The position numbers were made by a program, and so were the translations under genes. Of a stretch of 51,529 nt of DNA, positions 18,389-29,512 are shown piece by piece. The stretch is from assembly GCA_016206165.1 (NCBI GenBank), contig JACQSD010000018.1:1-51529 (forward strand), written 5' to 3'. The stretch's first letter is position 1. Every line of letters starts with the position of its first letter. The stretch is from Candidatus Uhrbacteria bacterium. GTDB lineage: Bacteria; Patescibacteriota; Patescibacteriia; JACQSD01. Below the pieces are notes generated by a model. It had not been told where the DNA came from. It made no database searches and saw only the letters and a list, made by a program, of their open reading frames with translations.

Positions 18389-20959
18389 ATGAACGCCTAC
18401 GATCCAAAGCGGAAGGCGGATGCTGAAGTTCTTGCATCCGAGCCAATAGTGCAACGTCCGTTTACGAAGGAAGAAATTTATCGCGATGGTCGCGCGCTCG
18501 GGTTTACCGAGAATGCAATTCGTGTCATTGAAAAGCGGTATCTTACGCGCGATGAAGAAGGGCAGATCGTCGAAACGCCAAAAGGAATGTTTCGTCGGAT
18601 CGCACGTGCACTTGCGGCGGTCGAGGGGAAGTACGGGGCAAATGAGGCGCAAGTAAAATTTTGGGAGGAACAATTTTATACTGTCCTTTCGCATTTTGAA
18701 TTTACTCCCGCAGGCCGCACCATTACGAATGCGGGTGGGCCAACGCGCGTTGTTGCGAACTGCATCGTGCTCCACGCGGAAGATTCGATGGATGGCATTT
18801 TTGGGACGCTGCGCGATGCAACACTCCTCCAGCAAGCAGGATCTGGCCTTGGGTTTCCGTGGCACCTCCTCCGCCCTGCAGGAACGATTGCAGTGAAGTC
18901 ACGCGGAGTTGCTTCAGGCCCTGTTCCATTTTTACGTTCCTATGACGCAGCATTTGGCGTGGTGAAACAACAAGGGCGGCACGGTGCGAACATGGGGGTC
19001 ATGCGTGTCGACCATCCAGATATCCTCGAATTTATTGATTGCAAACGAAAAGAAGGGGATATCGTCAATTTTAACATTTCCGTTGGGCTCACCGATGCAT
19101 TTATGACCGCGGTGAAGGCAAATGATCTGTCGCCCTGGCTCTGCGAATGGAAAGGGAAGAAGATGAAGCCACATACGATCACGCGGAATAATCGCGGCGC
19201 ATACAAATCACATGAAGATGTGACGCTTACTGCGCGCGAACTCATGGATCGGATTGTTGATGCAGCGTGGACGAATGGAGAGCCGGGGATTCTTTTCCCT
19301 GATGCGGCGAATCGATCAAACCCAGTGCCGGCTTTGGGGCGCCTTGAAGCAACGAATCCATGTGGCGAGCAATGGTTGCACGATTCAGACGTCTGCAATT
19401 TAGGATCCGTGAATCTTGCGCGGTTTGTGAAAGATGGTCATATCGACGAAGATCGGCTTCGCGTTGCATCGCGGATCGCGACACGCATGCTCGATAACGT
19501 CATTGATATTTCTGATTTTCCTGTGGAGCGTGTGAACAAGCGATTCCGCGACAATCGTCGGATTGGGCTCGGGATCATGGGGTTTGCCGACATGCTCTAT
19601 CAGCTTGGCATTCCGTATAATTCCGAAGAGGGCTTCATGACTGCGGAGCGAGTGATGAAGATTGTGAATGACGCCGCACATCAGGAGTCGCAAGATTCTG
19701 CAGAACAAAAGGGTGTGTTTCCAAATTGGGAGATTAGTATTTTTGGGCCGAAAGGACAGAATCGAAAACAACGGAACGCGGCCTTAACGACGGTCGCTCC
19801 CACAGGATCACTCTCCATGTTCTTTGACTGTGCATCAGGGGTTGAGCCCTTCTTTGCACTCGCCTACTATAAAGAGGTTATGGGGGGCGATCAACTTCCG
19901 TATTTTAATTCGTATCTCGAGGCGGAACTCCGGAAGCGCGGTTTCTATTCTGACGAATTACTGCAAGACGTGTTGAAGACAGGGACGATTCAACATCGCG
20001 CGGATCTTCCAGAGGATCTCCGTCGCACATTCGTGACGGCTATGGATATTTCGGCAGAAGATCATATTCGGATGCAGGCAGCATTTCAGAAATATGTCGA
20101 CAATTCCATTTCGAAGACTATTAATTTCAAGAATAGCGCGACGAAAGAGGATGTACTCCGTGGATACATTCTCATGTGGGAGCTGGGGTGCAAAGGGGGC
20201 ACGGTGTATCGCGATGGATCACGGAATGAGCAAGTGCTTAATTTGAATTCAAAGAAATCCGGCGAAGCCGGACGCGGCTCCGCCGGGGGCGAAAAAGTTG
20301 CAGTCGCAGCAGCACCTGTCGCCGCGGTTGTACCAGAGGCCCCATCGCAGGCAGCAGTCGCTCCGGCGTATGTGGGGGCATCAGGGTTGACTCCGCGCCC
20401 GCGTCCAGATGTCACCCACGGATCAACGTATAAGACGAAGACGGGCTATGGGAATTTGTATGTGACGATTAATGATGATGCGGAGGGGAAGCCATTTGAG
20501 GTATTTGCAACGATTGGAAAAACAGGTGGAGTTTTCGCAGCAAAGTCCGAAGCGATTTGCCGGCTTGTGTCGATTGCGCTCCGGTCTGGCCTTGATCCTA
20601 TCGAGCTTGTGAAAGAATTGAAAGGGATCCGGGGCCCCATGCCTGTCTGGGGGAAGAATGGAATGGTGCTCTCGATTCCTGATGCGATTGCGCAGGTCAT
20701 GGAGGAGCACGTGAAACGCGATCAGCAGCAGTTGGCGTTTTATGCAAAACCAGAAGGAGCAGCACCGGTCGCAGTGAACGCAGCGGTTGCGTTAGCGGCA
20801 ACAACGACAGCTCCCGCGTCTGCGGCAGTGATGAACACCGCGCCGACATCCATTGCCGATCTTGGGTTTGCGCCCCAGTGTCCCGATTGTTCTGGAATTC
20901 TCGAAATGAGTGAGGGGTGCATGAAATGCCGCTCCTGTGGGTTTTCTAAGTGTGGATAG
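18389..20959 (+). CDS. nrdJ: adenosylcobalamin-dependent ribonucleotide reductase (class II)
   Basis: TENAIRVIEKRYL, NCIVL, NPCGEQWL, TVAPTGS, and a C-terminal CPDC..CMKCRSCG Zn ribbon. A low-complexity Ala/Pro insert precedes the B12-binding region. Start set at ATG 18389. Confidence 0.92.
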   Translation: MNAYDPKRKADAEVLASEPIVQRPFTKEEIYRDGRALGFTENAIRVIEKRYLTRDEEGQIVETPKGMFRRIARALAAVEGKYGANEAQVKFWEEQFYTVLSHFEFTPAGRTITNAGGPTRVVANCIVLHAEDSMDGIFGTLRDATLLQQAGSGLGFPWHLLRPAGTIAVKSRGVASGPVPFLRSYDAAFGVVKQQGRHGANMGVMRVDHPDILEFIDCKRKEGDIVNFNISVGLTDAFMTAVKANDLSPWLCEWKGKKMKPHTITRNNRGAYKSHEDVTLTARELMDRIVDAAWTNGEPGILFPDAANRSNPVPALGRLEATNPCGEQWLHDSDVCNLGSVNLARFVKDGHIDEDRLRVASRIATRMLDNVIDISDFPVERVNKRFRDNRRIGLGIMGFADMLYQLGIPYNSEEGFMTAERVMKIVNDAAHQESQDSAEQKGVFPNWEISIFGPKGQNRKQRNAALTTVAPTGSLSMFFDCASGVEPFFALAYYKEVMGGDQLPYFNSYLEAELRKRGFYSDELLQDVLKTGTIQHRADLPEDLRRTFVTAMDISAEDHIRMQAAFQKYVDNSISKTINFKNSATKEDVLRGYILMWELGCKGGTVYRDGSRNEQVLNLNSKKSGEAGRGSAGGEKVAVAAAPVAAVVPEAPSQAAVAPAYVGASGLTPRPRPDVTHGSTYKTKTGYGNLYVTINDDAEGKPFEVFATIGKTGGVFAAKSEAICRLVSIALRSGLDPIELVKELKGIRGPMPVWGKNGMVLSIPDAIAQVMEEHVKRDQQQLAFYAKPEGAAPVAVNAAVALAATTTAPASAAVMNTAPTSIADLGFAPQCPDCSGILEMSEGCMKCRSCGFSKCG

Positions 20960-21844: not shown

Positions 21845-22456
21845 ATGGGACAACAATGGAAACAATCGAAGGGGTTGACAATCATCTATGTCGGTGATGG
21901 GAAGGGGAAGACGACAGCGGCGGTGGGGATGATTGTGCGTGCACTCGGTCATGGCTGGCGCGTTGCGTTTTTGCAATTCATGAAAGAAGAAAAATGGCCC
22001 TCCGGCGAACGCGACTTTCTACGCTCGCTCTCTAAAAAAACTTCCCCTCTCCTTTTAGGAGAGGGCGAGGGTGAGGTCCAGGTGAGGTCTCAGGGCGAGG
22101 TTCTCGTTGAGGTCGTCGGCCAAGGCTTTGTCGGTATCATGGGCGACAAGAAAGAGCGCGACATCCATCGCGCTGCCGCAGAAGCGGGATACAAGAAGAC
22201 GCTCGATCTCCTCACATCGAAACAATATGACCTTGTGGTGCTCGATGAAATCCTTTCTGCTGTTGATGAGGGGTTATTGACCGAGGATCAGATCCTTGTG
22301 CTCATTGCATACAAACCAGAAGACACCACTCTCGTGATGACCGGCCACAAGCACTACTCAAAGATTTTTGAAAAAGCCGACCTCGTGACCGAAATGAAAA
22401 AATTGAAGCACCCCTTTGATTCCGGCTACATCGCCAAGAAGGGGGTTGACTTTTAG
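21845..22456 (+). CDS. cobO: ATP:cob(I)alamin adenosyltransferase (CobO/BtuR type) carrying a ~22-aa in-frame repeat-element insertion
   Basis: LTIIYVGDGKGKTTAAVG (P-loop), LQFMK..WPSGER, DLVVLDE, TGH, LVTEMKKLKHPF. The extra segment is KKTSPLLLGEGEGEVQVRSQGE. Confidence 0.85.
   Translation: MGQQWKQSKGLTIIYVGDGKGKTTAAVGMIVRALGHGWRVAFLQFMKEEKWPSGERDFLRSLSKKTSPLLLGEGEGEVQVRSQGEVLVEVVGQGFVGIMGDKKERDIHRAAAEAGYKKTLDLLTSKQYDLVVLDEILSAVDEGLLTEDQILVLIAYKPEDTTLVMTGHKHYSKIFEKADLVTEMKKLKHPFDSGYIAKKGVDF
22045..22089. repeat. CCCTCTCCT-N3-AGGAGAGGG + (GGTGAGGTC)x2 hairpin element, copy 2, inside cobO
   Basis: CCCTCTCCT ttt AGGAGAGGG cgaGGGTGAGGTCcaGGTGAGGTC. Confidence 0.85.
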
Positions 22457-23492: not shown

Positions 23493-24362
23493 ATGAAACG
23501 ATTCATTTTATTTTCTACGCTCGTTGGAGTTTTCTTTATTGCACTATTTTTTTATTGGTCGAGCGTTGTGTCGAACGCTCGCGCGCGTGGGCGGTCACTC
23601 CCCCTCATCGTTCATGCGGGTGGGGGTGTTCGCGGAAACATTTATACGAGCAGCCGCGAAGCACTTGATGCAAATTATGCGGCGGGGTATCGGTTATTTG
23701 AACTCGATTTTTCTTGGACGAGCGATCGTCAACTCGTCCTCATCCATGATTGGGAAGGAACATATGAAAAATATTTCGGGATGCAAGGCGAGCGGCCGAC
23801 ACGCGACCAATTTTTGGCGCTCTCCATGAAGGATAACCTCACTCAACTCTCTCTCGAACAATTGTTCGAGTGGTTAGCGGCGCATCCTGATGCGCGTGTC
23901 GTGACGGATGTTAAAGAAGATACTATTGCCGCGCTCACATACATTCAGGAACGCGATCCTAAGTTTGCGCAACATTTTATTCCACAGATTTACGATCCAG
24001 AAGAATATACTGCGGTTCGCGCGCTTGGATATGTGGACATTATTTTTACATTATATCGGTTGACCATCGATCGCTACGTGACTGCGTTGCGCATCTTCTT
24101 TTTTGCAGGGACGCATGATTTATATGCCGTGACGATGCCAGTGGAGCGTGCGTTGCATGGATCATTCGCATCGCTCATGCAATGGACAGGAAAGATCGTC
24201 TATGTGCATACCGTGAATGAAAAAGAAGAATATCAAATCCTACAGCAACGCGGCATCGGCATCTATACTGACTGGATTATTCCGAGCGCTTCTTCCACAG
24301 ACGCCCTTCCTCAAGCATCGTCCGCTTCCATTGATACAACTCATTCAGGTCGCACATGGTGA
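23493..24362 (+). CDS. membrane-anchored glycerophosphodiester phosphodiesterase-like (GDPD/PLC-like) protein
   Basis: Signal/TM MKRFILFSTLVGVFFIALFFYW; IVHAGGG..SREALDANYAAGYRLFELDF..LVLIHDW...GIYTDW. Start at ATG 23493, because the ORF opening at 23430 runs through the terminator. Confidence 0.6.
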   Translation: MKRFILFSTLVGVFFIALFFYWSSVVSNARARGRSLPLIVHAGGGVRGNIYTSSREALDANYAAGYRLFELDFSWTSDRQLVLIHDWEGTYEKYFGMQGERPTRDQFLALSMKDNLTQLSLEQLFEWLAAHPDARVVTDVKEDTIAALTYIQERDPKFAQHFIPQIYDPEEYTAVRALGYVDIIFTLYRLTIDRYVTALRIFFFAGTHDLYAVTMPVERALHGSFASLMQWTGKIVYVHTVNEKEEYQILQQRGIGIYTDWIIPSASSTDALPQASSASIDTTHSGRTW

Positions 24363-26541
24363 GCAGTGCGGTGGTATCGGGAACGTACTCGCGTGGGCAT
24401 TGGAGTGCATGAAGAATTCCAGTCTCCACTCTTCTTTTACCACGAACGTCCTCCTGGTTGATATACAAGCCGAGTTCATGCATCCCCACGAGATTCGGGA
24501 ATTTCCTCCGGTCATCAAAGAGTGAATGCCCCTCAAACGTATTTGGTACATTCACGCCAAGGAGGTGGAGGAGCGTGGGGGTAAGATCAAGGCTCGACGC
24601 ATACATGTCTACTGCTCTTGGGAGCGGTGAATCGGGCACGTACATCATGAACATAATTTCGTCATAGATATCGAGCGTCCTTGTATCTTCTGGGAATAAG
24701 GCTTTTACGGATACGGTCGGGAATACGGCATGGTCAGCAATCGCAACGACGATCGTGTTTGCTGCGAGTGGGCTTTTTTGGAAATCATCCCAAAATTGCG
24801 AGAAGGCATCGTCCGTCGAGTGAAAGGAATTCAAGACGTCATTTTTTCCATGCCCGTAACTTTTTCTATCTTTCGAAATGGTAAATGGTGGATGCGAATC
24901 GATCGTTGTCATGATACCAAGGAATGGGCGAGCCGTTTGTTGTTCCATCATGGGGATGAGGAGTGGGAACAGTTGATGATCGGAGTATCCCCACGAGAGC
25001 GGTTTTTCCGGAATCACGTTTTTAAGTTGTTCGCGTCCGTAGATTGTATCGACACCAGCGTTCCCGAATAATTTATCCTTCGATGCATACGTGCGTTCAA
25101 TAGCGGTCATGTAGAATGTATCGCCATAGCCATTTTTTTTCAAAATCTCTGGGAGGCAAAGCAATTGATGTCGCGTCAACGAACCATTGCTTATAATTTC
25201 TCCATGCCCGGTTGGCGGGAGAAACGAACAGAGATCCGCGAGCATGCCTGTTTCTGTGGGCGTTGAGGCGTTGTAGAATTTTTTAAACACGGTTGTGTTT
25301 TCGTTTCCCGCCATTTTTTCAAGCCCCGGCGTTAACCCCGGAAATCGTTGATTGTAGACGCTCGTCAATCGTGTCGAGAATGATTCAAAAAAAAGGATGA
25401 GAATGTTTGGAGGTGTCGTTGCGAATCGTTGTGCGAGTTTTGGTGCGAGCGATTTCTCATCGTACACGCGTTCATGCGTGGATACGAGGAATGCATTCGG
25501 TGTATACGTGAGGCCAAATTTTTTCAGTTTTTCTGCAAGGATGGGGTTCAATGTTTTTACGTACGATTTCCCGAAATAGTACTCGATAAAGGAACGCGCG
25601 ATGATTGCTTCGCCTGTATTCCGGAGGATCGAGGATCCAAAAAAGATGCCGATGCCGAGCATGAGAACCACCCCCTCCACGATGATCCATCCGCGCGCGG
25701 ATGTGGTTGCACGGATCGTGCGAGCAAATTTCCATACAACGAATCCAACAATGCAGGTAATTGCGAGAAAGAGCAGCATGGTCACGATGAGCTCGTTGCC
25801 TTGTACGACTTCATCGGCGCCAGCAAGATGCTCGAGTGCCGACGGTCCGATGTGGCGCCCGGAATAGTAAAGGACGCTGACGTTCACGAGCCAGACAAAA
25901 GAAACAAAGAGGGACGCAATGAACCAGAGGAACATTCCTCCCATGCGGATGATTCGTGGTAAATAGCGGAGCAATAGACTCGCAAGTGCTGCACCCGCCA
26001 TCCAGAGCAATGTTATCGCGAATGTACGAAAGACAACGATGGTGTAGATTTTTTCATAGCGCGCATCAATGAGTGAATAGCGGAATCCAAAATATTGGAA
26101 GACGCCGATGATTACGAAAACGGTAATGAATAAGAGGAACGAAGCATCAATCATTTGTATCAATGTCGCTGTGTGTGGAGATGATGCAAGGAGTCGTCGT
26201 ACGAAAATGAAGAGCGCCATCATCAGGATTACCACGAGAACAATTTGTGCGAGTTGATCGCGAATAACGAGTATTGGCGCGAGCAATGATCCAAGAAGCA
26301 GGAAGCGCGCGGCGAATGTGATCGAGAGCGTGCGTGTGGTATCGAGGAATTTTTTCATGATCGACGCAAGAGCGAAGACAGCGATCGTGCTGGCAACAAG
26401 TGCGATGAGTCCCGTGACACCTCCCCACAACGCAAACGATTGCAGAGGAAAATGTGGGATACGGACAAATGACCACGATGCACTCATGAGCGCTGTTGCA
26501 ACGACAATAGCAATGATCGATTTTTTTTCAAAATAATGCAT
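24277..26541 (-). CDS. LTA synthase / phosphoglycerol-transferase family protein (multi-TM N-terminus + sulfatase domain)
   Basis: About 9 TM helices, then PNILILFFESFS...TPTETG...SHPPF, a sulfatase-type domain. The 3' end overlaps the convergent GDPD-like gene by 86 nt. Confidence 0.8.
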   Translation of the reverse strand: MHYFEKKSIIAIVVATALMSASWSFVRIPHFPLQSFALWGGVTGLIALVASTIAVFALASIMKKFLDTTRTLSITFAARFLLLGSLLAPILVIRDQLAQIVLVVILMMALFIFVRRLLASSPHTATLIQMIDASFLLFITVFVIIGVFQYFGFRYSLIDARYEKIYTIVVFRTFAITLLWMAGAALASLLLRYLPRIIRMGGMFLWFIASLFVSFVWLVNVSVLYYSGRHIGPSALEHLAGADEVVQGNELIVTMLLFLAITCIVGFVVWKFARTIRATTSARGWIIVEGVVLMLGIGIFFGSSILRNTGEAIIARSFIEYYFGKSYVKTLNPILAEKLKKFGLTYTPNAFLVSTHERVYDEKSLAPKLAQRFATTPPNILILFFESFSTRLTSVYNQRFPGLTPGLEKMAGNENTTVFKKFYNASTPTETGMLADLCSFLPPTGHGEIISNGSLTRHQLLCLPEILKKNGYGDTFYMTAIERTYASKDKLFGNAGVDTIYGREQLKNVIPEKPLSWGYSDHQLFPLLIPMMEQQTARPFLGIMTTIDSHPPFTISKDRKSYGHGKNDVLNSFHSTDDAFSQFWDDFQKSPLAANTIVVAIADHAVFPTVSVKALFPEDTRTLDIYDEIMFMMYVPDSPLPRAVDMYASSLDLTPTLLHLLGVNVPNTFEGHSLFDDRRKFPNLVGMHELGLYINQEDVRGKRRVETGILHALQCPREYVPDTTALLTMCDLNELYQWKRTMLEEGRLWKKRSE

Positions 26542-26563: not shown

Positions 26564-26591
26564 TTGACGGCGATTGTAGGGTTGCTATACT
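26564..26591 (+). promoter_or_regulatory. promoter TTGACG-16-TATACT driving the cobalamin riboswitch
   Basis: gagTTGACGgcgattgtagggttgcTATACTtgag. Confidence 0.55.
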
Positions 26592-26597
26592 TGAGAA

Positions 26598-26740
26598 AGT
26601 TCCTTTCACTCATTCCATTCCGTGGGGGAAGGCTGTGAAAATCAGCCGCTGTCCCGCAACTGTAACCCGCCATGGGGTGGGGAGCCAGGATACCCACGGT
26701 GGAACTATCAATCGCTAACTCTTCGAGTGAAAGAGTGAGT
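26598..26740 (+). promoter_or_regulatory. cobalamin (B12) riboswitch
   Basis: P1 CTTTCACTC/GAGTGAAAG. Conserved core GGGAAGGCTGTGAAAATCAGCCGCTGTCCCGCAACTGTAA. B12 box GAGCCAGGATACCCAC, with CCGTGGG/CCCACGG closing. Confidence 0.88.
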
Positions 26741-26768
26741 GCAGAGTTTTCAAAAAAATCTCATGTGC

Positions 26769-26804
26769 ATTCCCTCGTTCCCTCGAACGAGGGAATTTGA
26801 TTTC
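26769..26804 (+). terminator. riboswitch expression-platform terminator
   Basis: ATTCCCTCGTT ccctcg AACGAGGGAAT followed by TTGATTTC. GGAGG and ATG 26831 follow. Confidence 0.65.
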
Positions 26805-26830
26805 AACGAACAGCACACGTGGAGGAAATC

Positions 26831-27232
26831 ATGGATCTTGATATCGGTCGTCGGGAGTTTTTGCGATACGGCATCGGTCTCGCGATCACAACGATGTTCG
26901 TGGGGATCCTGCCGGGGTGCAGGGACATGCTCGACAAGCTCGAGAAGGACAAGAAAACCTATCCGGCAGGAACGCCCTTGGGTGAGCTTGTTCGGAAGGG
27001 CTATGTGGTGTCGAAGGTCGAGAAAGGCGACTGGCAGACGACGTGGAACACGACGTTCGGCGGCCCGAAAATCACTGCCATCAATGGCACGGTCGTCGCA
27101 ACGTTTGATGTGACCGATGTACATGGTTACGTCAATCCTACCGTTGGCGTTGGAGAATATCAGCTCGGCTCTTGGAGAAGCATGACTTGGTATGACTTCA
27201 ACTATCAGCGTGTCTTCACGGTCACGGCATGA
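26831..27232 (+). CDS. Tat-signal lipoprotein of unknown function, first gene under the B12 riboswitch
   Basis: MDLDIGRREFLRYG (twin-Arg motif) ...GILPGC (lipobox). GGAGG lies 6 nt upstream of the ATG. Confidence 0.7.
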   Translation: MDLDIGRREFLRYGIGLAITTMFVGILPGCRDMLDKLEKDKKTYPAGTPLGELVRKGYVVSKVEKGDWQTTWNTTFGGPKITAINGTVVATFDVTDVHGYVNPTVGVGEYQLGSWRSMTWYDFNYQRVFTVTA

Positions 27233-27243
27233 GGTCCGATTTT

Positions 27244-27281
27244 GTGGTGGGAGGTATGCGCAACGCGCAGCCTCCCACCAC
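27244..27281 (+). terminator. 11-bp GC-rich hairpin between the lipoprotein gene and the alpha-toroid gene (attenuator/terminator candidate)
   Basis: GTGGTGGGAGG tatgcgcaacgcgcag CCTCCCACCAC, then acaacaccTTTTcT ATG. Confidence 0.4.
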
Positions 27282-27295
27282 ACAACACCTTTTCT

Positions 27296-28258
27296 ATGCG
27301 TAAAAGTTTCATTATTGCAAGTTTCGTATTTCTCCCGCTTTTTGTGTCCGCAAGCGAATCGCCATGGACTGTGATGGCAGACGCGGCACGGGGAGGAGTA
27401 ACATCCGCCATCACTATTGATCAGAGTTCCGTATTTTCGTTTTCAACTTCACTCCTTGCCTTTGTTGCTGCTGGCGGAAGTCCAGATAGCGCGATCGTTC
27501 AGTCGTTTATCGACAAATATTATACAAACAACCAGATTGGCAATCTGGAATATCTCAACGATGATTTTTGGGGTATTCTTGCGCTACGATCTGCCGGGGT
27601 TCTCGCGTCGGATGCCGTGATCCGTGATGCGCGGTCGCTTATCGAGAAAGCGCAGCGCCCGAATGGGGGATGGAGTTGGAGTCCGACATATCCGGTCGCG
27701 GATACCGATGATACTGCAGCGGCGATCATGGCGCTGCTCGAGAGTGGCGCTGCACGCTCGGATGCATCGATACAAAAAGCATTGGGGTATATTCGCAGCG
27801 CACAGAATATAGATGGGGGATTTCCGAATGTCCCGCCAGCAACATCAAGCATCGAATCGACAGCATGGGTTGTCTCTGCGCTTTGGAAGGCAGGGGAGGA
27901 TCCGAAGACGTGGTCAAAGTCCGGAAAAGATCCGATGACGTATCTTCATGCGCAAGAGAAAAGTGATGGATCGTTTGGTGGAGCAGTGAGCACTGCGTAT
28001 GTCGTCATCGCGCTTGCAGGTAAATCGTATCCGGTGCGATCGTATGTCCCGCCGGTAATTCTTGAGGCTCCACAACAAGAAGAAGTCCCGCAACAGAAGA
28101 TACAATTGCCTCCACCAGAGCAGCCTTCGCCGGTTGTTGAGAAAGTTATCAAGAAACCAGTTGTTCAAAAAGTAATAAAAAAGATCATGAAGAAAGCAGT
28201 GAAGAAACCAAAGAAAACCTCACCCCCACCCTCTCCTAAAAGGAGAGGGAAGATATAG
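27296..28258 (+). CDS. secreted prenyltransferase/terpene-cyclase-like alpha/alpha-toroid repeat protein (transcobalamin alpha-domain-like)
   Basis: Signal peptide MRKSFIIASFVFLPLFVSASE. Repeats DDFWGILALRSAG, NGGWSWSP, DTDDTAAAIMALLESG, QNIDGGFPN, STAWVVSALWKAG, SDGSFGG. Lys/Pro-rich tail. Confidence 0.7.
   Translation: MRKSFIIASFVFLPLFVSASESPWTVMADAARGGVTSAITIDQSSVFSFSTSLLAFVAAGGSPDSAIVQSFIDKYYTNNQIGNLEYLNDDFWGILALRSAGVLASDAVIRDARSLIEKAQRPNGGWSWSPTYPVADTDDTAAAIMALLESGAARSDASIQKALGYIRSAQNIDGGFPNVPPATSSIESTAWVVSALWKAGEDPKTWSKSGKDPMTYLHAQEKSDGSFGGAVSTAYVVIALAGKSYPVRSYVPPVILEAPQQEEVPQQKIQLPPPEQPSPVVEKVIKKPVVQKVIKKIMKKAVKKPKKTSPPPSPKRRGKI
28217..28249. repeat. ACCTCACCC + CCCTCTCCT-N3-AGGAGAGGG hairpin element, copy 3 (inverted orientation), forms the 3' end of the CDS
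   Basis: ACCTCACCCCCA CCCTCTCCT aaa AGGAGAGGG, which encodes ..TSPPPSPKRRGKI*. Confidence 0.85.
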
Positions 28259-28261
28259 AGT

Positions 28262-28702
28262 ATGCTCACACGAGGATTAAAATTTTTCGGAGTCACACTC
28301 GTGCTCATCGGAGTAGGTTTCTTGCTTGGGTGGAGCGTGCAGGCGCCGACGCCTCTACAGCCGACAACATCCGATACGGGTGGAGCGCGTGTTGCCCACC
28401 TCATCATTGATGCGGATACTGGACATCTCCAAACATTCCCCAACGAACCGTTCTTTGCGGGCGCGACAGTTTTTGATATACTGAAAGCAGTGACGACACG
28501 AACATCAATGCCGTTTGTGTACGATCCGCCGGGCGCATATGGCGTCTTCATTCGGCAAATCGGCGGAAAGAAGAATGGAACAGAGAAAAAGTATTGGCAA
28601 TACTGGGTGAACGGGCAGTTTGCCATGGTCGCGGCAGATAAACAGGTTCTTCAATCAGGGGATACTCTATTATGGAAATTCACAGGAGAACAACAGGAAT
28701 AA
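28262..28702 (+). CDS. membrane-anchored DUF4430 protein (transcobalamin beta-domain-like)
   Basis: TM anchor, then ATVFDILKAV...FIRQIGGKKNG..KYWQYWVNGQFA..GADKQVLQSGDTLLWKF, the typical DUF4430 pattern. Confidence 0.75.
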   Translation: MLTRGLKFFGVTLVLIGVGFLLGWSVQAPTPLQPTTSDTGGARVAHLIIDADTGHLQTFPNEPFFAGATVFDILKAVTTRTSMPFVYDPPGAYGVFIRQIGGKKNGTEKKYWQYWVNGQFAMVAADKQVLQSGDTLLWKFTGEQQE

Positions 28703-29223
28703 TACTTGCCTTTGCTCTATTCATGGCTGTGGCAATCGCAGTGCGTTTGCTTCCTCATGCGCCAAATATGACGCCGCTCGGAGCGCTCGCATTAACCGCC
28801 GGTCTTTTCTTGCGAGGGCGGTGGACATGGGTGATACCGATGGCGGTGCTCTTTGCTACGGATCTCGTGCTCGGTGGGTATGCGTGGCCAGTGATGCTTG
28901 CGGTCTACGGCAGCTTTGCACTCATCACGTGGATTGGGCAACAACTGCGATCTGCGTCACGCCCAGCGCAGGTCATTGTTGGCTCGGCAAGTGCATCGCT
29001 CTTCTTTTTTCTCACCACCAACTTCGCAGTCTGGGCATGGACACCAATGTACGAGAAGACATGGAACGGACTCATGCTCTCGTATACACTCGCCATTCCC
29101 TTTTTTAGAAATATGTTTGTTGGGGATCTTTTTTATACCACATCTTTTATAGCAATCATTGTTGCCGTTCAACATCTTACAGCCGTGAAATATTTTTATG
29201 GAACAACCACCATCGGACATTAA
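28672..29223 (+). CDS. polytopic membrane protein, putative cobalamin ECF-type S component (CbrT-like)
   Basis: RLLPHAPNMTPLGALALTAGLF motif and 5-6 TM helices. Functional call is an inference from the motif and from riboswitch context. Confidence 0.55.
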   Translation: MEIHRRTTGIILAFALFMAVAIAVRLLPHAPNMTPLGALALTAGLFLRGRWTWVIPMAVLFATDLVLGGYAWPVMLAVYGSFALITWIGQQLRSASRPAQVIVGSASASLFFFLTTNFAVWAWTPMYEKTWNGLMLSYTLAIPFFRNMFVGDLFYTTSFIAIIVAVQHLTAVKYFYGTTTIGH

Positions 29224-29512
29224 AGAACTGCTCGAGCGGAATATTGCGCTCGCGGAACAGATTTTGTATCATACGAAGAAGACGCACCGTCACCTTATGT
29301 GGGACAGCGCGTTCAGTGCGATCAAATGGGTGATTATTCTCGCTCCACTCCTCGCTGCTGCGTGGTACTTTCCAAAATATACGAAGGATATTGTTGGATT
29401 TACCACGGACATCGGAAAGCAGTTCGAGTTTATGCAGAAACAATTGGGACAGATTGGTGATCTTCAGAAACAGGCGGAACAAATGCAGAAACAAGTGCCG
29501 AAAAGAAAATAG
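29198..29512 (+). CDS. hypothetical single-TM coiled-coil protein
   Basis: 104-aa ORF with TM helix WVIILAPLLAAAWYF and a Gln/Lys-rich tail. Confidence 0.45.
   Translation: MEQPPSDIKELLERNIALAEQILYHTKKTHRHLMWDSAFSAIKWVIILAPLLAAAWYFPKYTKDIVGFTTDIGKQFEFMQKQLGQIGDLQKQAEQMQKQVPKRK

Follow-up and report, generated by a model that had tools for sequence, protein, structure and literature searches.

A riboswitch-headed gene module of a Patescibacteria bacterium, a probable corrinoid scavenging operon built around an anchored DUF4430 domain and a CbrT-like DUF6580 membrane protein

Five consecutive genes (g1 to g5) of Candidatus Uhrbacteria bacterium, a member of the candidate phyla radiation (CPR)/Patescibacteria, probably form an operon for scavenging corrinoids (vitamin B12). 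They lie in the window analysed here, which is the 51,529-nucleotide stretch covering positions 1 to 51,529 of contig JACQSD010000018.1 (assembly GCA_016206165.1). The host is a groundwater bacterium with a tiny genome, of which 836 kb are assembled at 83% completeness. CPR/Patescibacteria are ultra-small and largely uncultured bacteria that obtain cofactors from their neighbours. The operon stands behind an adenosylcobalamin (AdoCbl) riboswitch and encodes, in order, a small lipoprotein (g1), a secreted alpha/alpha-toroid protein (g2), a membrane-anchored DUF4430 domain (g3), a DUF6580 membrane protein (g4) and a single-span membrane protein (g5). Its conserved core is the DUF4430–DUF6580 pair.

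The leader carries a full-length AdoCbl aptamer (RF01482, model positions 1–149 of 149), which is the only riboswitch that cmscan finds in the whole window. A sigma-70-like promoter, TTGACG-16-TATACT, stops 8 nt 5' of the aptamer. A perfect 12-bp hairpin follows at 26769–26796, with TTGATTT directly 3' of it. An initial annotation, made by a model from the sequence alone, had proposed a B12 riboswitch with a terminator-type expression platform. The riboswitch passes the covariance-model check with a score above the gathering score, and promoter, aptamer and hairpin are all kept in the closest relative, locus L085, and in locus L005. The L085 hairpin runs on into TTTTCGTTTCTTT, a better U-tract than that of the window. 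A terminator-type platform is a reasonable label for this conserved hairpin, with termination itself a prediction. Relatives of the module were gathered by a scan with one genome per species, which detected a DUF6580 relative in more than 586 species; 80 loci were kept. Domain counts over 83 loci were made with local hidden Markov models built from the window genes, and the cmscan search for riboswitches covered 36 loci. The module is headed by a cobalamin riboswitch (RF01482, RF00174 or RF01689) in 19 scanned loci besides the window. Such riboswitches occur in toroid-bearing loci (16 of 22), in loci with the DUF4430–DUF6580 pair alone (4 of 11) and in none of three Bacteroidales loci. Locus L003, a version of the module with a complete energy-coupling factor (ECF) operon, is among those headed by a riboswitch.

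The second line of evidence is the membrane protein g4. Its single sequence finds nothing in the PDB, and a profile of 29 DUF6580 proteins has a sole match there, chain A of 6FNP (CbrT), with E 2.6e-9 over profile positions 6–162. Because CbrT is the only match of the family profile, g4 is identified as a homologue of the CbrT-family S-components, which bears out the CbrT-like label first given to it. CbrT of Lactobacillus delbrueckii is an experimentally shown ECF S-component for B12 and cobinamide (PMC5997447). Members of DUF6580 from CPR bacteria have invariant R25, P28, H29, N32, D64, T116 and N117, among others; CbrT and the ECF-linked protein of L003 read PNVQPVT, without the histidine.

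The motor of an ECF transporter is missing throughout the class. No CbiQ/EcfT (PF02361) was found in the host's own 836-kb genome, where a local six-frame search with the EcfT of L003 was also empty. The class was surveyed in 151 genomes, of which 136 have a completeness of 90% or more; EcfT occurs in none of the 151, though 66 carry DUF6580. The four ABC ATPases of the host genome adjoin FtsX-type, ABC-2-type or binding-protein-type partners. FecCD is absent from the genome, and neither BtuCD nor ECF A or T components occur in the window. The search for ecfA/ecfT proposed with the initial annotation thus extends the reported absence of ECF A/T and BtuFCD from the window, in that EcfT and FecCD are absent genome-wide. 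The same result tells against the ECF-type hand-over of corrinoids suggested earlier. Since EcfT is absent from all 151 class genomes, g4 is best regarded as a solitary S-component, which must work without an ECF ATPase module. The only Peripla_BP_2 (BtuF/FhuD-type) protein in the genome is an orphan of 267 aa (G000:C32:8233-9036, minus strand, the same as L091:1330-2133). It has no signal peptide and no permease neighbour, and does not make up a BtuFCD system; a role in binding corrinoids or metal in the cytoplasm is possible.

The third line of evidence is the distribution of the two core domains. Among the class genomes, DUF6580 occurs in 66 and DUF4430 in 64; both are present in 62, DUF6580 only in four, DUF4430 only in two and neither in 83 (Fisher p = 8e-35). 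At the level of loci, DUF4430 is present in 58 of 83, mostly immediately upstream of DUF6580, and the toroid in 32. The pair is taken as the core because its small DUF4430 paralogue, which always stands next to DUF6580, coexists with toroid–DUF4430 fusions elsewhere in the same locus and often occurs without any toroid. Architectures range from a fused toroid-DUF4430 followed by DUF6580 (L001), through separate toroid, DUF4430 and DUF6580 genes (L004), to the complete ECF operon of L003 on a 2.8-Mb contig, with two DUF4430 genes, CbiQ, a double ABC ATPase, DUF6580 and a toroid. DUF6580 stands by itself in the loci from Bacteroidales and Ignavibacteria. The module also accompanies B12 use. The AdoCbl-dependent (class II) ribonucleotide reductase NrdJ is encoded in 60 of 66 DUF6580-positive class genomes compared with 53 of the 85 others (p = 5e-5), and genes for NrdJ (24), PduO-type adenosyltransferase (19), NrdR (13) and CobO (8) lie near DUF6580 in the 83 loci. 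The window itself encodes NrdJ and a CobA/CobO/BtuR-type corrinoid adenosyltransferase upstream of the module (Table 1), and NrdJ is the likely consumer of the imported B12.

Table 1. Features of the corrinoid module and its B12-related neighbours in the window.
Feature	Position	Strand	Evidence or remarks
NrdJ, class II (AdoCbl-dependent) ribonucleotide reductase	18518..20239	+	TIGR02504 3.9e-190, over cut-off
CobA/CobO/BtuR-type corrinoid adenosyltransferase	21845..22456	+	clusters with L054:5697-6245 (PF02572 1.3e-59)
Sigma-70-like promoter TTGACG-16-(TG)TATACT	26564..26591	+	consensus scan, 10/12 matches
AdoCbl riboswitch aptamer RF01482	26600..26746	+	cmscan 65.5 bits against gathering score 50, E 7e-10
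Terminator-like expression platform	26769..26806	+	12-bp hairpin ATTCCCTCGTTC-CCTC-GAACGAGGGAAT, then TTGATTTCAA
g1, small lipoprotein, 133 aa	26831..27232	+	leader GRREFLRYG...LPGC
g2, secreted alpha/alpha-toroid protein, 320 aa	27296..28258	+	signal peptide; SQHop_cyclase_C 8.9e-8, Prenyltrans (Pfam)
g3, DUF4430/SLBB domain with N-terminal membrane anchor, 146 aa	28262..28702	+	Pfam 3.2e-16
g4, DUF6580 membrane protein, 183 aa	28672..29223	+	Pfam 1.3e-40; LPHAPNMTPLGA motif present
g5, single-span membrane protein, 104 aa, overlaps the end of g4	29198..29512	+	conserved position

The DUF4430 protein g3 is related to the beta domain of transcobalamin (TC). It scores 60 bits against PF14478 (DUF4430), for which the cut-off is 23.8. 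As g2 and g3 share a reading frame and are parted by only TAG and one codon, their read-through product was folded with AlphaFold 2 (AF2) on a 77-sequence alignment that included natural fusions. The resulting monomer model contains a long artificial linker and has a mean predicted local distance difference test (pLDDT) score of 82.5; the DUF4430 domain in it reaches about 93. In Foldseek comparisons the g3 beta domain matches 3u7z with a target-normalised template modelling score (TMt) of 0.78, and the isolated human TC beta domain, apo and bound to cyanocobalamin (CNCbl), with TMt 0.72–0.73 (5no0/5np4). The profile match to 5no0 has an E-value of 1.9e-4. That isolated human domain was crystallised with CNCbl (5np4). 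Profile matches to haptocorrin, intrinsic factor (IF) and TC (1.6e-11 to 2.7e-7) cover the last toroid hairpins and the beta domain. The initial annotation of g3 as a membrane-anchored homologue of the TC beta domain is upheld by these comparisons.

The first 15 Foldseek matches of the whole read-through model in the PDB are TC, IF and haptocorrin (E 2e-10 to 1e-8), in alignments of about 490–515 columns that take in both domains in the same order. The next matches, to the toroid only, are squalene-hopene cyclases, drimenyl-diphosphate synthase and prenyltransferase beta subunits (1e-6 to 1e-4). The fold resemblance is real, and g2 and g3 nevertheless fall outside the TC/IF family, being two genes with no PF01122 match and a toroid of 10 helices. 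The toroid itself (residues ~20–250, AF2 pLDDT ~96) lies behind a signal peptide and is followed by a Pro/Lys-rich C-terminal tail, so that the secreted alpha/alpha toroid recognised earlier in g2 is corroborated. Pfam assigns it to SQHop_cyclase_C and Prenyltrans instead of PF01122, and its sequence profile is nearest to squalene-hopene cyclase (1.8e-40).

The initial annotation had described g2 and g3 as a split, transcobalamin-like pair and suggested that they form a two-piece corrinoid trap. A functional link between toroid and DUF4430 holds up: in addition to the TC-like matches of the model, the two are fused in 13 of 32 toroid-bearing loci, as toroid-DUF4430 in six and DUF4430-toroid in seven. 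Loci with a fusion usually retain an extra small DUF4430 beside DUF6580. Descent of g3 by gene fission does not hold up. The DUF4430 tree places g3 among the small paralogues adjacent to DUF6580 in L005, L060, L057 and L011 (approximate likelihood ratio test (aLRT) support 93), outside both fusion clades, and L057 and L009 hold both kinds. The toroid tree unites g2 and all six toroid-DUF4430 fusions in one clade (aLRT 95). With g3 in the DUF6580-adjacent clade and g2 in the fusion clade, fission is disfavoured; a likelier history, judged from these trees, is that the g2 lineage lost its own beta domain, in place of which it now has the Pro/Lys tail, and that g3 was already the partner of g4. 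Separate and fused arrangements of toroid and SLBB domain are ordinary variations.

That g2 and g3 nonetheless act as the two halves of one clamp, sandwiching a single corrinoid in trans and passing it to g4, is an unlikely but serious alternative. Both folds match the alpha and beta domains of TC in the same order, the haptocorrin/IF/TC profile match runs across the end of the toroid into the beta domain, relatives often have the two domains fused, the g2 toroid belongs to the collinear-fusion clade, and only a stop codon and one further codon part the two genes. Against these points, g3 has orthologues in loci with complete fusions (L057, L009) and in many loci without any toroid, and the toroid is present in only 32 of the 83 loci. 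In the AF2 pseudo-fusion the domains are not placed as in holo-TC (root-mean-square deviation 15–19 Å, TMq ~0.37), which is a weak argument given a monomer with an artificial linker. The structure-prediction check thus returned the folds of TC, IF and haptocorrin without their domain arrangement, and yielded no evidence for the proposed g2–g3 interface. Much less probable is a reading in which g2 acts on an envelope lipid, either as a real enzyme (class II terpene-cyclase-like) or as a prenyl-binding protein, and shares no more than a transcript with the B12 genes. Squalene-hopene cyclases and drimenyl-diphosphate synthase are indeed its best sequence matches, and its DTDDTA aligns with the catalytic DxDDTA motif of the cyclases. 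The middle Asp of this motif is, however, Asn in 32 of 76 family members, and g2 is an exported single toroid of ~225 aa and not the two-domain beta-gamma architecture of class II terpene cyclases; catalysis of this kind is therefore unlikely. The repeated fusion of the toroid to DUF4430 likewise speaks against this reading, as does locus L026, where RF00174 (34.5 bits, L026:7526-7645) lies between DUF6580 and a downstream toroid gene of 711 aa, which is thus under its own B12 switch.

Two further alternatives concern g4 and its cargo. The module could import another tetrapyrrole or a corrinoid precursor (cobinamide or another cobamide) and not complete cobalamin, which we consider improbable. 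ECF-CbrT also carries cobinamide (PMC5997447), four class genomes have DUF6580 with neither DUF4430 nor NrdJ, and Bacteroidales loci have a lone DUF6580 without a riboswitch, so that the family may not be restricted to B12. The riboswitch of the window is, however, of the AdoCbl class, and the visible corrinoid enzymes are only the adenosyltransferase and AdoCbl/B12 users, with no nucleotide-loop assembly genes seen near the module. The four genomes in question (G022, G040, G081 and G126) are the only ones of the class in which DUF6580 lacks DUF4430, and unpaired DUF6580, there as in Bacteroidales and Ignavibacteria, may have another substrate. It is also conceivable that g4 is an ordinary ECF S-component, with its EcfAA'T module hidden in the 17% of the genome missing from the assembly. 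L003 shows the same gene set within a full ECF operon, and solitary CbrT of L. delbrueckii gave no B12 uptake in Escherichia coli (PMC5997447). This explanation is extremely improbable and was rejected as the principal one, as EcfT is absent class-wide, from genomes that are mostly near-complete, and the ABC ATPases of the host stand beside partners of other kinds.

Several observations weigh against corrinoid scavenging by a solitary g4 loaded by g3. Corrinoid binding or transport by DUF6580, by bacterial DUF4430 or by toroids of this type is a prediction from homology and context. The inactivity of solitary CbrT in E. coli means that independence from ECF is not a given for this fold family. 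DUF6580 is not the sole route for B12, because 53 NrdJ-positive genomes of the class lack it. A riboswitch at gathering score was found in just 20 of the 36 scanned loci, the U-tract of the window's terminator is weak, the g2 toroid is closer in sequence to squalene-hopene cyclases than to the TC alpha domain, and the host assembly is only 83% complete. Even with these points, B12 scavenging remains the probable function of the operon, and the following sequence of events would account for it. Unable to make B12, the host needs AdoCbl for its class II ribonucleotide reductase, and it has a B12-radical-SAM enzyme as well. With AdoCbl plentiful, RF01482 would favour the terminator hairpin and switch the operon off; with B12 scarce, the five products would be made. 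At the cell surface, the corrinoid is most likely bound by the anchored TC-beta-type domain of g3, which may hand it over to g4. Transport by g4 would take place without an ECF ATPase, probably by toppling of the S-component as proposed for BtuM and solitary BioY. Net uptake could be driven by intracellular trapping, in which the corrinoid is adenosylated by the neighbouring CobO and bound by NrdJ. We envisage g2 as an accessory surface protein that may capture corrinoids alone or together with g3, its basic Pro/Lys tail probably tethering it to the envelope. The orphan lipoprotein g1 and the single-span protein g5 would be lineage-specific helpers.

The true start of g1 is probably the ATG at 26831, behind a Shine-Dalgarno sequence GGAGG at 26821-25, and a database copy (P0163) is also 133 aa long. 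No match was found in Pfam, NCBIfam or PDB sequences. A word-indexed search of 5.8e9 proteins gave just four homologues and a full HMMER scan of 1.8e9 representatives gave eight matches, some of which are repeats of large repetitive surface proteins in which Pfam matches are only spurious. The AF2 model has a pLDDT of 62, and Foldseek finds nothing in the PDB below E 0.7. Identity between g1 and the gene in first position in L085, the closest relative, is only 26%. The leader of g1 combines an RR motif with an LPGC lipobox, both kept in its three to four close homologues, and Lgt is present in the genome, so the lipoprotein part of the original label "Tat lipoprotein" stands. Export by the twin-arginine translocation (Tat) system is unsupported because TatC is absent from the host genome; neither of the two same-family genomes has it, and among the 151 class genomes only two to three do. 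The best description of g1 is a lipoprotein for which export by Tat is unsupported and whose fold has no recognised relatives. The last gene, g5, has no Pfam match. Its homologues occur in six loci (L085–L087, L009, L048 and L062), directly downstream of DUF6580 in four of them, and in L085–L087 the same overlapping 104-aa gene follows DUF6580. It probably belongs to the operon as a fifth gene.

The relatives offer further observations on the module and its surroundings. Secreted proteins of 175–197 aa are inserted between DUF4430 and DUF6580 at L085:7404-7997, L001:4069-4596 and L023:5959-6513. They are mutually unrelated and one is immunoglobulin-like; a common identity of the L001 and L085 inserts was considered and rejected, their sequences not being alike. 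This slot seems to accept lineage-specific accessory proteins, as the window does with g1. An AdoCbl-II riboswitch (RF01689, 40.4 bits, L025:6299-6375) precedes a DUF4430–DUF6580 pair on a contig of 143 kb whose bin is assigned to a DPANN archaeon (Candidatus Nanoarchaeia, DATBWR010000004.1). Cobalamin riboswitches are unusual in archaea, and this one reflects either transfer from CPR bacteria or a binning error. In L001, a group I intron match (RF00028, 55.4 bits, L001:2066-2274) lies ~100 nt 5' of an AdoCbl-II riboswitch and adjoins a tRNA gene on the opposite strand. In the window, an LtaS/sulfatase-type membrane enzyme of 754 aa (24277-26541, minus strand) is divergent from the riboswitch promoter, a layout also seen in L085. 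Three consecutive full-length NrdJ (TIGR02504) matches stand in tandem, partly inside giant frames of 1,450–2,144 aa, in five class genomes (G111:C2:139072-144552, G048:C24:10025-15332, G060:C18:12371-17754, G021:C71:5132-10515 and G071:C1:258455-263729). These could be triplicated class II ribonucleotide reductase genes or fused copies.

About 44% of the class genomes carry the module, and since most of these also hold an AdoCbl-dependent ribonucleotide reductase, B12 import may gate DNA synthesis in them. The module is a natural test case for two questions: whether S-components of the CbrT type function in the absence of an ECF motor, and whether bacterial transcobalamin-like domains bind corrinoids. 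The latter is a prediction from 2007 and is relevant to the proposal that animal B12 carriers arose from bacterial proteins. If the interpretation is true, two DUF families, DUF6580 and DUF4430, would gain a function. A broader possibility, put forward tentatively and with more doubt than conviction, is that DUF4430 and DUF6580 represent an undescribed mode of vitamin transport, in which an ECF-free CbrT-family protein, distinguished by its invariant LPHxPN histidine loop, is loaded by an anchored TC-beta-type binder with toroids as optional outer antennae, and that this is the main entry of B12 into Patescibacteria and some DPANN archaea. A literature search by name found no mention of DUF6580, and no mention of DUF4430 on such a system. 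In that searchable literature we did not find DUF6580 as the membrane partner, the homology to CbrT together with class-wide absence of ECF, or the near-obligate pairing with an anchored DUF4430. What the window adds is a first gene that encodes an orphan lipoprotein, and a toroid that has no beta domain of its own.

The notion of a bacterial transcobalamin is not new, and the two-piece corrinoid trap of the initial annotation has a clear precedent. Burroughs, Balaji, Iyer and Aravind (2007, Biol Direct 2:4; PMC1796856) defined a transcobalamin-like SLBB clade in bacteria, reported toroids fused on either side of the SLBB domain and extra paralogous SLBB genes in the operon, tied such proteins to CbiO/CbiQ operons in bacteria auxotrophic for B12, predicted that they scavenge the vitamin, and proposed that animal TC was acquired from Gram-positive bacteria. 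The present module shares with those systems a secreted or anchored DUF4430/SLBB protein, a toroid partner, extra SLBB paralogues, a host without B12 synthesis and the B12-scavenging role. It differs in that no CbiO/CbiQ (ECF-type) module exists here or class-wide, toroid and SLBB domain are separate genes and the membrane partner is DUF6580; both systems are purely predicted. The animal carriers TC, IF and haptocorrin (8ixu, 2bb5, 2pmv and 4kki), which supply the leading structural matches, have the same order of toroid and beta domain. In contrast to them, the module uses two polypeptides, each tethered to membrane or envelope, and a toroid that has 10 helices, is nearer to terpene cyclases in sequence and lacks PF01122.

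On the membrane side, the closest known system is ECF-CbrT (6FNP; PMC5997447), to which the g4 family is homologous over ~157 residues, including the R...PN..P motif. The resemblance extends to gene neighbourhood, as NrdJ and an adenosyltransferase lie nearby in the window and in the L. delbrueckii nrdJ-cbrS-cbrT-pduO cluster (PMC5997447). CbrT needs EcfAA'T (PMC5997447), whereas the CPR class has no EcfT, and the His of LPHxPN that is invariant in CPR members is not found in CbrT. BtuM and some BioY proteins are published precedents for ECF-independent transporters of the S-component fold (PMC6072759). Neither g4 nor the DUF6580 profile matches BtuM in the PDB at E<=10, g4 has zero cysteines, so that the Cys-cobalt ligation of BtuM is impossible in it, and BtuM has no dedicated extracytoplasmic binding protein. 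In other respects g4 is like BtuM of Thiobacillus denitrificans (PMC6072759), which is an S-component-type protein without an ECF module and with an adenosyltransferase gene adjoining; the mechanism proposed for BtuM, toppling with facilitated diffusion (PMC6072759), is the one that we propose for g4.

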